Assembly: GCA_951406725.2 (NCBI GenBank)
Contig: OX597818.1
Span: 64,418,001-64,482,000, forward strand
DNA from: Octopus vulgaris
Lineage: Eukaryota
Length of the DNA stretch: 64,000 nucleotides
Direction: 5' to 3'
The position numbers were made by a program, and so were the translations under genes. This document shows positions 1,857-63,445 of the stretch, piece by piece. The first letter of the stretch is position 1, and every line of letters starts with the position of its first letter. The notes under the pieces are model-generated. The model saw only the letters and a program-made list of their open reading frames with translations. It was not told the DNA's origin and did not search any database.

Positions 1857-3129
1857 TACATATATATATATAACTATATATGTATATATGAATATATATA
1901 TATGCATCTGTTTTCGTGTGTATATAAGTACGTATGCATGTGTATATAAAACCATGCACTAGATATAGAACAAATTTTGCATGTGTTTCATTTATTGCTG
2001 CTTAATATTCGGCATGCTGTCATATATTTTGTTGATAATCTCACTAATAATTGTCATTTTTTATTGTTAATTTTCCTTTTTAAAGTTGGCAATAAGGTAG
2101 GTTTTCTTGGGTTTTATTTTGTATTTCCAAAGCTACGCATATTTCAGCTTTGTCCTACACAAACTATGGCAATTTTACCGTACCGTTAATATTTTCACCC
2201 TACTTATACAATATTCTAATCATGCACCTTTTTTTAGATGTACTTTACTTCTCGAAATCATAAAGAAATTAAATCATGAAATAAAATAACTGACAATGTA
2301 GAAGGAATACAAATGTCGGTGAGCCGGGGGGATCGATAATACACCAGGCAGAAGGATTAATGACATTTGTTATGTTTCCGTTCTGAATTTAAGCTCTACT
2401 GTTGTCAGCTTTGCCATTTATCCTTTCGGTGTGGGTAAAATACGTACCAGTTAAGCACTAGGGCCTTGTTTCATAATTTGAAACCTGTATAAGAAGATAT
2501 ATATGAGGCGTTAAGCGAGCAGAATCGTAACCACATTGAGTTAAATGCTTCGTGACATTTTGTCCCAGTTCGACATTGATATTTTTCTTTTCGGAGTCAA
2601 TAATTCAAGTAAAGGTTGGTCATTGGGTTCGATTACATCGATTTTCCCTTCTGCCACGAAACAGCTGGTCTTGTGTCGAATTTAGAAATCGATTTTTTGC
2701 TCCATTAGACAGGAATTATAGCACCAACTGTTTCTTTTATTTTTGCAGGATCTCTTTGACCATTGCAACAAAGGCAGGAATTTATCCAGAAACCAAATAG
2801 CTAAGTTGTTAGCACATGAATAAATACACTACCTGAATCCAAGTAAAGTGAGGTGGCTTTTTAGTAGGCGACGCGTTAACATAACTAATCACTTCAAACA
2901 GTCAGAAGAAATGTGGGACAATATATTGTCTAAAGTTCTAGTCGTCTGGCTTAATTCTGTTGGCTGCGAAATGATGCAAGGCGTATTTGTTGCGTGATCG
3001 AATTCCTCTTAGAATATACATATATATATATATATATATATATTCAAATCGCAATATATAAACTCAGGTAGTTCCCTAATACTCATAAAATGGCTCCATA
3101 ATGTATTATTCTACATATATACATTTATA

Positions 3130-3385
3130 GTTGGAATGTGCAAGCAAAAATAGCATAAGACGAAGTCAGGTGTGTAAAAAACTAACAGATGTATTAGTTT
3201 AACGTTCGGGTAGTGAGAAAGTCTTTAACGTTTCGAGCATACGATCTTCATCAGAAAGGAACACAGAAATAAGTAGAGAGGGAAAATAGAAAATATTTAG
3301 TGGTTAACGATCAATCATGGTGAATGCCGGACAGAAGTGGTCAGACAGGAGAGCTAGGAAGAAGGGGAGATAAAAAAGTAGTTTT
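3130..3385 (-). mobile_element. Short hammerhead-bearing repeat, family H (copy 1)
   Basis: Minus strand CUUU-CUGAUGA-A-GAUCGUAUGCUC-GAAACGUU-AAAG at 3223-3258; homologous to five other copies in the window. Confidence 0.7.
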
Positions 3386-4122
3386 AAAAAAAGTAGTTTT
3401 AAAAAATGATGCTTCCCAAATGATCACATTTATACTACGATACATGATAAAGTGATAAACGATACATGATAAAGCGATAAAGAATGTATCAAGTTATAAA
3501 CGACGTGAGAAATTCTATAATAAAATTTATTTATTTCATTTTTGCATCTAGTTTGCAATATTCTATATGAACATAAATCCTCTCATTGGATACATCGAAA
3601 TTTATCTAACTATAAGTAAATTCAAATATCACAACAAATTTTGTCGTAAATTATAGAAGCATATGCGAATCATAAATAAATTACTTACATGCCTGCAATA
3701 ATAGAAAAAGTCCTCCAAATCAAGCAGAAACGAAGCTACGTGATCAGGTGAAAGAAAAATAGTTAAATATACTAAAATCTCGGTTGTGGCTTTAGACGAA
3801 CGGAAAGGCAATATTTAAATAGAATGTTAAAAGACGTGTAAGACAATGAAACTGAAATGAATATCCTTTTATCAGAAGATTGTCTAACAAATGGAAGGGA
3901 ATTTTCATTGATATAATTAAAAGTAACAAGTAGATCTTAATAGTATTATAAAAGTAAAGTGATATATGCATTATTCAAAATCCAGACAATAAAAGATTGG
4001 AAAAATAGAGAAAAATAGAGAAAACTAATAATAACTAACTGAAACAAGAGAAATATGAATAATATTAAATTAAATTGGCTTTTAGAAATTTGAATATATA
4101 AGTCAATATAAGTCAATATATA

Positions 4123-4615
4123 GGCGCAGGAGTGGCTGTGTGGTAAGTAGCTTGCTAACCAACCACATGGTTCCGGGTTCAGTCCCACTGCGTGGCATCT
4201 TGGGCAAGTGTCTTCTGCTATAGCCCCGGGCCGACCAATGCCTTGTGAGTGGATTTGGTAGACGGAAACTGAAAGAAGCCTGTCGTATATATGTATATAT
4301 ATATATATATATATAGATAGATAGATAGATAGATAGATGGAGAGAGAGAGAGATATGTGTGTGTTTATGTGTGTGTGTGTGTGTGTTTGTGTGTGTGTGT
4401 TTGTGTGTGTGTGTTTGTCCCCCTAGCATTGCTTGACAACCGATGCTGGTGTGTTTATGTCCCCGTAACTTAGCGGTTCGGCAAAAGAGACCGATAGAAT
4501 AAGTACTGGGCTTACAAAGAATAAGTCCCAGGGTCTATTTGCTCGTCTAAAGGTGGTGCTCCAGCATGGCCGCCGTCAAATGACTGAAACAAGTAAAAGA
4601 GTAAAAGTAAAAGTA
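4123..4615 (+). mobile_element. tRNA-derived SINE family A (CORE-like body, internal microsatellite), full length
   Basis: A-box-like GTGGCTGTGTGGT, B-box-like GGTTCAGTCC, CTTGGGCAAGTG motif, (AGTAAAAG)n tail; many homologues in the window. Confidence 0.9.
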
Positions 4616-5525: not shown

Positions 5526-5557
5526 TATATTTAAAGCAGCAGAAAATTCAACAAAAT

Positions 5558-5595
5558 CTGTTGCTCTGAGTTTCTCGTTGCCGTTCATCAGACAG
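5558..5595 (-). ncRNA. Minimal hammerhead motif (U16.1 mutated, GCA triplet)
   Basis: CUGU-CUGAUGA-ACGGCAACGA-GAAA-CUCAGAG-CA-ACAG. Confidence 0.6.
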
Positions 5596-5867
5596 TCTTT
5601 GCTAGAATGGAACCGATATATCAATTCAATCTAGACTCTTACAAACGCTACACCTTTAAAAAAAATGGACTTGTTTGATTGGCCCTTTAGAAATAACGGT
5701 CAATCTTCGAGCGATAAACAAAAAAGCTCAAAAAAAGACTTTTGTTTATCGCTCGAAGATTGACCGTTATTTCTAAAGGGCCAATCAAACAAGTCCATTT
5801 TTTTAAAAGGTGTAGCGTTTGTAAGAGTCTAGATTGAATTGATATATCGGTTCCATTCTAGCAAAGA

Positions 5868-5905
5868 CTGTCCGATGAACGGCAACGAGAAACTCAGAGT
5901 AACAG
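5868..5905 (+). ncRNA. Minimal hammerhead motif (core CCGAUGA)
   Basis: CUGU-CCGAUGA-ACGGCAACGA-GAAA-CUCAGAG-UA-ACAG; stem I CUGU/ACAG; stem III ACUC-A-GAGU. Confidence 0.6.
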
Positions 5906-5975
5906 ATTTTGTTGAATTTTCTGCTGCTTTGAGTACTCTTTTTTCCACCTTGTTTCACATTTATGTGTTTACTCC

Positions 5976-6060
<85 letters not shown>

Positions 6061-6143: not shown

Positions 6144-6499
<356 letters not shown>

Positions 6500-33409: not shown

Positions 33410-33452
<43 letters not shown>

Positions 33453-33633
33453 TATTAGAGACAAAACCACTATTTTGCAAAACAAACAAGGAAAGACTTA
33501 ATCAATACATAAAATTTTAATAAATAGTCAAAAAAACCGCCACTACAATCGTTTCTTGTCTTGATCGACAATCTTATTTACAAGTCAGTTTCAAATTACT
33601 TCATAATTTGAAACTGACTTGTAAATTGGAAGT

Positions 33634-33676
33634 CCACCTGAAGATTGTCGATCAAGACAAGAAACGATTGTAGTGG
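33634..33676 (+). ncRNA. Type I hammerhead ribozyme, unit 1
   Basis: CCAC-CUGAAGA-UUGUC-GAUCAA-GACAA-GAAA-CGAUUG-UA-GUGG; all core positions and stems present. Confidence 0.85.
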
Positions 33677-33740
33677 CGGTTTTTTTACAAGTCAGTTTCA
33701 AATTACTTCATAATTTGAAACTGACTTGTAAATTGGAAGT

Positions 33741-33783
33741 CCACCTGAAGATTGTCGATCAAGACAAGAAACGATTGTAGTGG
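33741..33783 (+). ncRNA. Type I hammerhead ribozyme, unit 2
   Basis: Identical to unit 1. Confidence 0.85.
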
Positions 33784-33849
33784 CGGTTTTTTTTTACAAG
33801 TCAGTTTCAAATTACTTCATAATTTGAAACTGACTTGTAAATTGGAAGT

Positions 33850-33892
33850 CCACCTGAAGATTGTCGATCAAGACAAGAAACGATTGTAGTGG
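33850..33892 (+). ncRNA. Type I hammerhead ribozyme, unit 3
   Basis: Identical to unit 1. Confidence 0.85.
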
Positions 33893-34066
33893 CGGTTTTT
33901 TTGACTATTTATTAAAATTTTATGTATTGATTAAGTCTTTCCTTGTTTGTTTTGCAAAATAGTGGTTTTGTCTCTAATAATATTTTATAATATTTTACTA
34001 TAAAATTGGATTTAATCCTAAATCTGATTTTTTTTCCCTGTAAATTTGGATTTATTCCCTAATATT

Positions 34067-34136
<70 letters not shown>

Positions 34137-36040: not shown

Positions 36041-36087
<47 letters not shown>

Positions 36088-36259
36088 CAACAATTGAGGG
36101 TAAAATTAATTAATTATTAATCAATTTCACCAAGTGTTCAGTATGCAAAGGGGCCATTTAAGGCGAATTCAAATTATTACATTATATAATTATATATATA
36201 TAATTATATAATTATATATATATAATTGATCAAAATAAAAACATGATGCCAAGGATTCA

Positions 36260-36337
36260 GCGGTACATATGTTTCGGGCCTTTATTAGACAGATTTATAA
36301 CAATGCATAATGTATGTCTGTGGCCTTCTTCAGCCGC
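36260..36337 (-). ncRNA. Type I hammerhead ribozyme (left arm)
   Basis: Reverse complement of 36869-36946. Confidence 0.82.
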
Positions 36338-36868
36338 ACACAACAGCTTCCACAAGGACATGTGTTACATCAAAAATTCTTGGTTGGGGATGCAAATCCT
36401 CTCATTCGCGTACGACATAATGCGGCAACAGCATAGAATTGAAGCGTCCATCTCTTTCTTCTCTCAATGTAGAATGAGAAATTTGGATGTTGAAGTAATG
36501 TAAATAAATGAATACATATATAGACGTGAAGATGGAGGGGCGAGAATTCAGGACGAGGGATAAAATATGTATGTATAAAAAGTGTAAGTATAGAAAAATA
36601 TATATATTTTTCTATACTTACACATTTTATACATACATTTTTTATCCCTCGTCCTGAATTCTCGCCCCTCCATCTTCACGTCTATATATGTATTCATTTA
36701 TTTACATTACTTCAACATCCAAATTTCCTCATTCTACATTGAGAGAAGAAAGAGATGGACGCTTCAATTCTATGCTGTTGCCGCATTATGTCGTACGCGA
36801 ATGAGAGGATTTGCATCCCCAACCAAGAATTTTTGATGTAACACATGTCCTTGTGGAAGCTGTTGTGC

Positions 36869-36946
36869 GCGGCTGAAGAAGGCCACAGACATACATTATG
36901 CATTGTTATAAATCTGTCTAATAAAGGCCCGAAACATATGTACCGC
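36869..36946 (+). ncRNA. Type I hammerhead ribozyme (right arm)
   Basis: GCGG-CUGAAGA-AGGCC...GGCCC-GAAA-CAUAUG-UA-CCGC; palindromic stem III ACAUAUGU; GUA triplet. Confidence 0.82.
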
Positions 36947-37053
36947 TGAATCCTTGGCATCATGTTTTTATTTTGATCAATTTACTCCACCACCTACACC
37001 ACCAAACGGTATACACAGGTGCTTATAATTATCAAGTACTCACCCCGAATTTC

Positions 37054-37114
<61 letters not shown>

Positions 37115-54042: not shown

Positions 54043-54954
54043 TATTGTATATTTCATACCCACTGTAATATACTTAATATATTTGATATATTTACTGTAA
54101 CTAATTTCCTTATCCGCATATTGCCTCTATATATATGTGAATATTTATGCGTGTGTGTCTTTGTATCTGTGTTTGTTAAACACAGATACAAAGACACGCA
54201 CACATAAATATTCACAATATTGACAAACACACTCCATCATAATAACCGGTGCTGGTGTATTTACGTCCCCGTAAATTTGTGATTCGGCATAAGAGAGCGT
54301 TAGATTAAGAAGTAGGGTTAAAAGAAAAGTGCTCGGGTCAATTTGTTCGACTAAAAGCATTCAGAGAGGTGCCATAGCATGGCCGCGGGCAAATGACAGA
54401 AATAAGTAAAAAGAAAAAAAGAAAGAAGATATATATGTGTGAGATGAGCGCGCATGCGACTCTTTATCTCTGTACTAGAATATGTATAAATTGGTAGAGA
54501 TAGAAAGAGAGAGAGAGGAAGAGAGAAGAGAGGGCAGACAGACAATCAGATACAGAGAGAGGCATATCCGAACATGCTTCCCCTCGCGTGCACACAAACC
54601 CATTCATACGCGTGTGGAGTAGGGAACATCACCGTACACATCAGTTTATTTGTTTAGGCATACAAGTGGAGCATTGCTTCGAGTAAGTGAATGCCATTTG
54701 CGATGATTTTATTCAGAAATGCATGCATTTATTCTGAATTATACTTGAAAATATTTCTTTATTCGAGTGTTAAAATAAATAGCATTTAAATGCAAGGAGA
54801 TATCAGTGAAATTGGGATTTACATCAATGCCTTCATTCAAAACAAACATTTACTCGCAAGCTGAAGAAGCAGAAGCATACAGTATTCCATATCTCTTCAG
54901 TTGGAATCAGGTAGATTCTTCGTAAAATGGAAGCGTCGGTGTGTGTGCGTGTTC

Positions 54955-58804: not shown

Positions 58805-60050
58805 CGAGGGACGTTCAATAAGTAATGCCTCTGACCCACTTGCTCTAGCTGAAATTTTGATGTGCAATCATTTATATCTCTATAGAGTAAGTGGCAAATT
58901 ACAGCTCTGAATTAATTGTGGTTTCTGATTTACAGGTGTTTGAACCGAGTCAAGTGTGAAATGGAGCCTGTTGAGTGTCGAGCAGTGATCCGGTTTTTGT
59001 ATTTGAAATGACGCACACGACGGGAGACTTTTGATGAAATGAAAGTAACTTATGGTGATGACGCCCCATCATATGACCTTGTAAAACGCTGGCATCGTGA
59101 ATTCAAACATGGTCAGAACTCTGTGGAAACAGCTCCCAGATCTGGTCGCCCCTTCTGCCATTGATGAGGCATCTGTCCGTCAAGTTGAGGCTGCCATTTT
59201 GGAAGATCGACGCATAATTATTCGCCAAATAGCCCATGAGATCAAGATTAGTACCGGGTCTGTGGAAACTATCATTCATGACCATTTGCATATGCAAAAG
59301 GTGTTTGCCAGATGGATTCCCAGGTTGCTCACGCCTTTCCTGAAGCAAGAACGCGTCGAGTGCTCGAGGGTGAATTTGGAGATGTGCCAAGAAGATGAGT
59401 CAAAATTTTTCAAAAGACTGATTACACAGGATGAAACCTGGGTCCATCACGATGATCCAGAGACCAAAGCCCAGTCAATGCAGTGGAAGCACCGTGACTC
59501 ACCCCCTCCAAAGAATGCAAGGGTGCAGCCCTCCGCTGGCAAGGTCATGCTCACAGTCTTCTGGGGCCAGGACGGGGTAGTGATGACAGATTTCCTGGCA
59601 AAGGGTACCACAATTGCAGGAGACTATTATGCTTCACGTTTGAGGAAATTAAGAGAAGCTATCAAAATCAAGAGGCGGGATAACGCTCCGGTCCACAACT
59701 CGCTTGTCGCCAGATCAGAAGCACAGGCGTATGGCTATGAACTCCTCCCCCACTACCCTACTTTCCTGACCTTGCACCCTTTGATTTTCACCTCTTCCCA
59801 GTCATGAAGTTGTTTTTGAAAGGAAAGCGTTTCCCAGATGATGCAGCCTTGATTTCTGAAGTCACGTTCAGGTTGGAGGACCAAGCTGGGGTCTTCTACA
59901 AAAACGGTCTCCAGAGCTGCATCAAGCAATGGGAGAAATGCGTAACTCTGGGTGGTTCCTATGTAGAAAAAGACTAATAACTGTACCAAGTTCCGTTGCT
60001 CTACTGCTATGGGAAGTGGGTCAGGGGCATTACATATTGAACGCCCCTCG
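58805..60050 (+). mobile_element. Mariner element, near full length, inactive
   Basis: TIRs CGAGGGACGTTCAATAAGTAATGCCTCTGACCCACTT / AAGTGGGTCAGGGGCATTACATATTGAACGCCCCTCG; TA on the left flank, TG on the right. Confidence 0.95.
58961..59977 (+). pseudogene. Mariner (DD34D-type) transposase pseudogene
   Basis: Starts MEPVECRAVIRFLYLK* (stop 59009-59011). Motifs PRSGRP, WIPRLL, TQDETW, DNAPVH, PDLAPFDFHLF and end GGSYVEKD*. Frameshifts and a deletion before DNAPVH. Confidence 0.93.
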
Positions 60051-63095: not shown

Positions 63096-63099
63096 ATAA

Positions 63100-63443
63100 T
63101 TAATCAATATAGGGTGGCAAAAAAATTTTGTAGAATTCTTTTGCCACCAGCGGCCTAGTAGGAAAAAAATTAAATAGTCATAAACCATTTTTAAGTTCAA
63201 CATCACAATCAAGGAACGGCCATAATAGGCCATTCACCCACTAGAAATAACAGCCAAAAGCTTCAACCGCAAAATAACATCAATTCCGTAAACCAGGAGA
63301 AAATTAAAAACAGGAGAAAATTAAAAACATTTACGTTTTTAATTTTCTCCTGGTTTACGGAATTGATGTTATTTTGCGGTTGAAGCTTTTGGCTGTTATT
63401 TCTAGTGGGTGAATGGCCTATTATGGCCGTTCCTTGATTGTGA

Positions 63444-63445
<2 letters not shown>
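63100..63445 (-). mobile_element. Fold-back element between (TA)n tracts, no hammerhead core retained
   Basis: 111-bp perfect inverted arms 63201-63311 / 63335-63445; 17-bp duplication at the apex; unique tail on one side. Confidence 0.7.

Follow-up and report, generated by a model that had tools for sequence, protein, structure and literature searches.

The locus lies within a stretch of 64,000 nucleotides of Octopus vulgaris DNA (GenBank assembly GCA_951406725.2, contig OX597818.1, positions 64,418,001 to 64,482,000 of the forward strand), which we analysed as a whole and call the window; all positions given here are counted from its first base. From left to right, there is a (TA)19.5 tract at 36047-36085, a left block at 36086-36171, and a TA-rich target stretch at 36172-36227 that includes a 22-bp tandem duplication (36181-36227). 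Two arms follow. The left arm, on the minus strand at 36224-36602 (379 nt), is an inverted, 5'-truncated copy without a tail, and the right arm, on the plus strand at 36603-36982 (380 nt), is the main 5'-truncated copy, non-coding by the tests run. They are joined head to head at a (TA)4 junction (36599-36606). The main copy alone continues into a 71-bp tail (36983-37053, plus strand), beyond which a (TA)12.5 target tract forms the right end at 37054-37078. The insertion proper is 36224-37053. The final four bases of the TA-rich stretch are common to the end of the left arm, possibly as microhomology.

The left block is a fragment of a separate dispersed repeat, homologous to 814-883 (blastn E 8e-6, with none of 500 shuffles as good). 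The original prediction held that the two outer tails differ, and their sequences do; the two are not equivalent, however, as the right one (36983-37053) continues the element and the left one (36086-36171) is another repeat. The likeness between left block and right tail is marginal, being matched by 14 of 500 shuffles, and is not significant given 16 comparisons. When the 166 TA-tract flanks in the window were compared, no further one stood out for a shared terminal motif. On the minus strand, the repeat at 36086-36171 and 814-883 has a degenerate pair of hammerhead-like core motifs that fails the consensus.

Symmetry and age of the arms

The locus had been described as a spacerless palindrome of about 760 bp, with a handful of differences between its arms and (TA)4 at its centre, and this description holds: only 4 of 380 alignment columns differ, and there is no spacer at 36599-36606. 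The differences are three substitutions (36338/36868, 36566/36639 and 36581/36624) and one 1-nt indel (36477/36728), which leaves the arms 99% identical, with a 5' end common to the base. Exact inverted matching extends over at most 140 nt, whereas 300 shuffles gave no match longer than 20 nt. As (TA)4 is self-complementary, a fold-back loop of 4 nt would appear as a zero spacer. The 3' end of the left arm lies 40 nt beyond the hammerhead cleavage site.

Long palindromes are a known class of artefact. A sequencing or assembly artefact built from fold-back reads would be in keeping with the fact that short homopolymer runs adjoin the indel as well as two of the substitutions, and inversions in Penelope-like elements (PLEs) are reported to trouble assemblies (PMC8557442). 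The palindrome is set between two different unique flanks, however, in a window without N; its arms differ at four positions, and it ends at the same type of boundary as three unrelated elements. We consider an artefact very improbable. With the calibration taken from PMC13282606, 3 substitutions in 379 positions give an age of 1.1 My (0.2-3.2), on the assumption that the arms were identical at birth and have undergone no gene conversion.

The AT content of the palindrome centre is 75-90% (within 60 bp). An AT-rich centre favours hairpins, which would suit a palindrome made after insertion, whether by fold-back in replication or repair or by collapse of a spacer, but such a process would have no reason to halt, in each of four unrelated elements, just where the element ends next to a TA tract. 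A fold-back DNA transposon with an acquired hammerhead would have terminal inverted repeats, unlike the asymmetric ends seen here. Origins of these kinds seem to us most unlikely. Extrusion of a cruciform from the symmetric AT-rich centre is plausible from the sequence. In human palindromic AT-rich repeats, a centre of this kind is a property tied to cruciform extrusion (PMC1851657); the octopus palindrome resembles those repeats in its length of several hundred bp and in its centre, and differs from them in its origin and in that its arms have persisted until four differences had arisen.

Hammerhead motif and predicted folding

Each arm carries a type I hammerhead motif. In the right arm it occupies 36869-36946 on the plus strand, with C3 at 36873, G12 at 36931, the stem III palindrome at 36934-36941 and H17 at 36942; in the left arm it occupies 36260-36337 on the minus strand, with C3 at 36333 and H17 at 36264. 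H17 is A in both arms, and every core base is present. Applied to shuffled sequence, the hammerhead descriptor gave a match in 2 of 20,000 arms and in none of 40 windows. Stem I is 4 bp long, and stem III is an 8-nt palindrome of which just 2 bp form in the monomer. The long stem II of the original prediction is there as an insert of 51 nt, although its pairing is interrupted, running as 4 bp, an 8-nt bulge, 5 bp and a weak 3 bp. At position 10.1/11.1 there is either an A.C apposition or bulges, with A.C in the best-energy register.

None of the Rfam hammerhead families matched at its gathering score, and none was among the 60 matches at E<=10, which were mostly miRNA-type models placed on the hairpin, all under their own gathering scores. 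The hammerhead that had been called intact on both strands thus has a complete core by motif, but lacks an Rfam hammerhead match and is intact by motif only. There is a single motif per strand, and the two lie 540 bp apart. What had appeared as two hammerheads is one motif duplicated by inversion, and because the copies are on opposite strands no transcript holds both.

Metazoan PLEs have been reported to carry dual minimal hammerheads on opposite strands, 100-700 bp apart, in which helix I is short, a base is added after A9 and helix III is palindromic (PMC4209133). The octopus motif resembles these minimal, dimer-dependent hammerheads in its 4-bp helix I, its extra base after A9, its palindromic helix III and its opposite-strand pair at a distance within the reported range. 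It differs from them in the 51-nt stem II insert with interrupted pairing and in the A.C at 10.1/11.1, and its 8-nt helix III palindrome resembles the less minimal variants in the same report. In predicted folds, the 86-nt motif of the right arm forms a hammerhead whose stem III is 2 bp long, the left-arm monomer misfolds, and for two copies of the 86-nt motif the predicted minimum is a double hammerhead, at -38.2 kcal/mol versus 2 x -13.2 kcal/mol. With 111 nt of context, stem I is disrupted, and the hammerhead fold lies 4.6-8.0 kcal/mol above the predicted minimum. On these models, the motif is a dimer-dependent type I hammerhead. Single minimal PLE hammerheads were reported not to cleave in vitro (PMC4209133) and an anole PLE ribozyme required its protein (PMC11167929), so that non-cleavage of 36860-36955, the segment put forward for a cleavage assay, is not valid as a refutation.

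Read-through transcription from either side yields the antisense arm before the sense arm. RNA of the whole palindrome is predicted to fold at -681 kcal/mol into a duplex of about 374 bp, and forcing the ribozyme raises the predicted energy to -553 kcal/mol; sense and antisense are predicted to pair at -165 kcal/mol. These values agree with the expectation of about 380 bp of read-through dsRNA in competition with the ribozyme. Because the antisense arm is made first and the motif is buried in the predicted duplex, the hammerhead is probably silent at this locus, and self-cleavage within 36224-37053 appears unlikely. A transcript of the palindrome, if made, would be a good ADAR substrate under the general rule for such substrates (PMC5625713, PMC9068888).

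Class assignment and other inverted elements in the window

Published accounts of PLE insertions report strong 5' truncation and, in many cases, a truncated copy in inverted orientation on the 5' side together with a tail of 30-40 bp at one of the two ends; several PLE clades target (TA)n (PMC8557442). The Neptune clade has also been tied to microsatellite targeting (PMC8557442). In the supplement to that report, Penelope-13_HM is listed with an attached inverted copy, a (TA)n target and a hammerhead on each strand, and PLEs of Octopus that insert in (TA)n are listed (PMC8557442). At head-to-head junctions in PLEs, palindromes are abundant and have been read as self-priming (PMC3846280). In O. 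vulgaris, 190 PLE families are reported to make up 6.83% of the genome, 31 of them recently active (PMC13282606).

The octopus element has this layout: from left to right, a TA-rich target, a short inverted copy, a main copy with a one-sided tail of 71 bp, and (TA)n. Near its 3' end lies a type I hammerhead whose helix I is short and whose helix III is palindromic, inverted 5'-truncated copies are joined head to head, and insertion at (TA)n, as in the TA-targeting clades (Neptune, Hydra and Naiad), is seen in the tract at 37054-37078 and the TA-rich stretch at 36172-36227. We are highly confident that this is a PLE-type insertion made in a single event. The assignment to PLEs is by structure as read from the sequence; the element is not an autonomous one and is not placed in a clade. 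It is a further example of the published inverted-copy layout, ordinary and not unique. The retrotransposition origin given in the original prediction is supported, although the prediction missed that this is a known PLE layout and that it recurs in the window.

Comparison with particular PLEs brings out both likeness and difference. The element resembles endonuclease-bearing PLEs such as Penelope-13_HM in its head-to-head copy, junction palindrome and one-sided tail (PMC8557442, PMC3846280), and Penelope-13_HM in particular in its (TA)n target and in carrying on each strand a hammerhead close to the 3' end (PMC8557442). Unlike the PLEs in those two reports, the octopus copy has no ORF, the whole insertion is palindromic, and the tail exceeds the 30-40 bp given in the literature; other elements in the window have tails of about 42, 75 and 100 bp. 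The junction palindromes of rotifer PLEs are 18-38 bp, compared with an unbroken symmetry of 380 bp here (PMC3846280). The (TA)n preference and the hammerhead near the 3' end are also shared with Hydra-clade PLEs, including Hydra-1_Obim, and in several Hydra-clade rows of the published table a 4-bp stem II is flanked by a single extra base on either side, as is the case here; the hammerhead of Hydra-1_oBim itself, however, differs in sequence, and its loop 2 is short (PMC8557442 and its supplement). Non-LTR retrozymes are likewise non-coding, with a type I hammerhead, and probably PLE-derived, but are built of same-strand tandem units from which a monomer can be excised, unlike the opposite-strand motifs of the octopus element (PMC7229834; bioRxiv 10.64898/2026.07.22.740005).

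Three other assignments within or near the PLEs were considered and set aside. A non-LTR retrozyme does not fit, as there is one motif per strand and no tandem array over the arms. An autonomous PLE does not fit, as the arm and tail ORFs have no Pfam match and the frame at 36594-36833 has no homologue. Membership of the Naiad clade does not fit, as a full core with three stems is present and Naiads are reported to lack a canonical hammerhead (PMC8557442). Outside the PLEs, a MITE or fold-back DNA transposon was rejected, as the element extends 71 bp beyond the inverted repeat at one end and not at the other.

We scanned 330 of the 573 stop-to-stop ORFs of at least 45 aa in the window against Pfam, low-complexity ones being excluded. 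No reverse transcriptase or GIY-YIG domain was found in the copy or elsewhere in the window among these 330 ORFs, nor was any host exon. Only a mariner transposase scored above the curated cut-off, and five weak matches fell below cut-off. The mariner copy, at 59012-59807, is broken (Transposase_1, E 9.6e-24; HTH_48 below cut-off). A sequence search with 36594-36833, one of three sense frames in the arm, found no relative, the other frames having been covered by Pfam only. A repeat-derived ORF at 4106-4534 has 91% identity over 30% of the query to 'Hypothetical predicted protein [Octopus vulgaris]', one of two matches, which bears out the coleoid (Octopus) host that had been suspected. A scan of GTDB with an 18-mer from the locus gave 14 loci, against 17 expected by chance, with a longest match of 24 nt, and a bacterial promoter scan, with a model not suited to animal DNA, was at chance level. 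Of the papers listed in our literature search on hammerheads, octopus and Penelope, none describes the focal family; the cephalopod background is given in PMC6962438 and PMC8967140, and the available text of a further cephalopod source (PMC9989829) does not mention Penelope.

The window holds 99 inverted pairs within 3 kb, and we examined the 25 longest. Five of these 25 pass as non-microsatellite, at least 97% complementary and with a spacer of less than 300 nt: 520-984, 5528-5935, 33443-33989, 63201-63445 and the focal pair, 36224-36982. By blastn, the focal arms are unmatched by the other four. Four of the five consist of a short arm followed by a long arm that has a tail on one side, the whole lying between (TA)n tracts; their tails are about 42 bp (5528), about 75 bp (33443), 71 bp (36224) and about 100 bp (63201). 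The pair at 520-984 lacks this order. Hammerhead cores are present in four of the five (36224, 5528, 33443 and 520), and 63201-63445 has no canonical core. In all four tailed elements the short arm directly adjoins the TA-rich target, with the 4-nt overlap at 36224. Because four of the five pairs have the layout and four carry hammerhead cores, the inverted layout is a habit of an element class in this genome and not a one-off.

The individual elements vary in detail. At 33443-34068, three tandem units of 107-109 bp, each with a full hammerhead and a perfect hairpin of 22-23 bp (5-nt loop) at the unit start, lie behind a 133-bp perfect inverted arm, with TA tracts on either side. This looks like a retrozyme-like array within a PLE-type inverted insertion and, unlike the focal element, could by its sequence undergo cis-dimer cleavage. 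The element at 5528-5977 has 196-bp arms, a 16-nt spacer and a 42-bp tail, each arm with a different core or stem change; its hammerhead is similar to Hydra-clade rows in the supplement to PMC8557442. At 520-984, with 101-bp perfect inverted arms, a long-stem-II hammerhead is complete on the plus strand (C3 at 905) and cut off in stem III on the minus strand (599), and the 263-nt spacer holds a segment homologous to 36086-36171. The element at 63099-63445 has 111-bp perfect inverted arms, a 23-nt centre with a slipped 17-bp duplication, a one-sided tail of about 100 bp, TA tracts on both sides and no canonical hammerhead, and is possibly a Naiad-type end. Elsewhere in the window, a solo minimal hammerhead core on the minus strand (3044-3270, C3 at 3254) belongs to a fragment that ends at a TA tract, and a 90-bp low-complexity palindrome at 54131-54220 (90%) and a 76-bp inverted pair at 6144-6397 (91%) are possibly MITE-like.

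Formation of the palindrome and double-stranded RNA

How PLE tandem and inverted structures form is still called undefined (PMC8557442). The original prediction offered two routes, namely fold-back priming during reverse transcription and head-to-head insertion into one TA tract. The second would require that a short element whose 5' end is fixed had inserted twice, as separate copies, and the (TA)4 at the centre would suit it, as these elements target TA tracts. The identical 5' ends and 99% identity would be needed twice, however, the tail is on one arm only, and there is no TA tract at the centres of the other inverted elements. Because of the common 5' end, the identity of the arms and the lack of a TA tract at the other centres, a single event is far likelier, and we give two insertions hardly any credence.

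Fold-back is the likelier of the two routes offered. Fold-back predicts short spacers, and for that reason the loop-sized junctions in these elements argue for it: 0 nt at 36224, 16 nt at 5528, a 6-nt loop following the slipped duplication at 63201, and the 5-nt loop of the unit-start hairpins at 33577, which we count with the short junctions. The zero spacer at the focal locus needs no special cause because (TA)4 is its own complement, and self-priming has been proposed earlier for PLE palindromes (PMC3846280). Our preferred interpretation, on which our confidence is evenly balanced, is that the locus holds the non-coding 3' end (pseudo-LTR and hammerhead) of a TA-targeting PLE, doubled head to head by fold-back of its cDNA. 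The endonuclease of the element would have nicked a TA-rich site, and reverse transcription, starting from the tail, would have broken off prematurely after some 450 nt. The newly made DNA, terminating in (TA)4, would then have folded back and been copied outward, and resolution of the intermediate at the boundary between pseudo-LTR and tail would have left just one of the arms with a tail. On this reading the hammerhead would be a passenger, suited to dimer action in tandem PLE transcripts. Counted against this account are the lack of reverse transcriptase and GIY-YIG domains, the 71-bp tail, the missing Rfam call, the layout of 520-984 and the coreless 63201 element.

For the fixed end of the short arm, a second priming event is a simpler account than fold-back. 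Both target strands might be nicked in one PLE event, each then priming cDNA from a different start site on the RNA, with truncated cDNA ends annealing via (TA)4; the tail would correspond to the segment that separates these start sites. In purified form, the anole PLE protein is reported to cut and extend both strands and to start at two sites that delimit the tail, and it is predicted to be a dimer (PMC11167929); the application to inverted copies is our inference and goes beyond the claims of that report. Double priming would explain both the one-sided tail and the short arm adjoining the TA-rich target in four of four tailed elements. Independent truncations should seldom fall within 0-23 nt of each other, yet they do so in three of the four, an objection that falls if each enzyme copies to the same RNA 5' terminus and runs off there. 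We hold double priming tentatively, as a credible possibility, and retain fold-back as the preferred reading.

Whichever route was taken, the product bears on dsRNA in this animal. Octopus is reported as exceptional in its near-perfect dsRNA potential (4.4e-3 of loci) and has the strongest hyper-editing signal reported in the same study (PMC5625713). In frog the potential is explained there by palindromic Harbinger elements, and Penelope is heavily edited in lizard; the available text names no source for octopus (PMC5625713). By an ungapped version of the measure in that study (PMC5625713), 1743 (2.9%) of 59,950 window positions lie in near-perfect hairpins; three inverted elements with hammerheads account for 1180 of these, microsatellites for 489 and other sources for 74. 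The elements at 520 and 63201 lie in the excluded margins. The share of 1180 in 1743 is biased, as the window was chosen for the focal element; without the focal element, hammerhead-bearing inverted elements supply 570 of 1133 hairpin positions. One window is insufficient for a genome-wide claim, and we judge it rather unlikely that octopus owes its near-perfect dsRNA potential and hyper-editing mainly to inverted PLE ends in its genome. Our search, which did not extend to most subscription journals, found no literature linking the two.

By itself the locus carries little weight, as one of many PLE-type remnants in a genome of which PLEs cover about 7%, though the element is a clean case of the PLE inverted-copy junction. 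If the link is true, every insertion would build its own hairpin, a self-made trigger for ADAR or RNAi that also silences the ribozyme of the element. If such palindromes supply most of the perfect dsRNA in octopus, the insertion chemistry of a transposon would be tied to a strongly hyper-edited animal.
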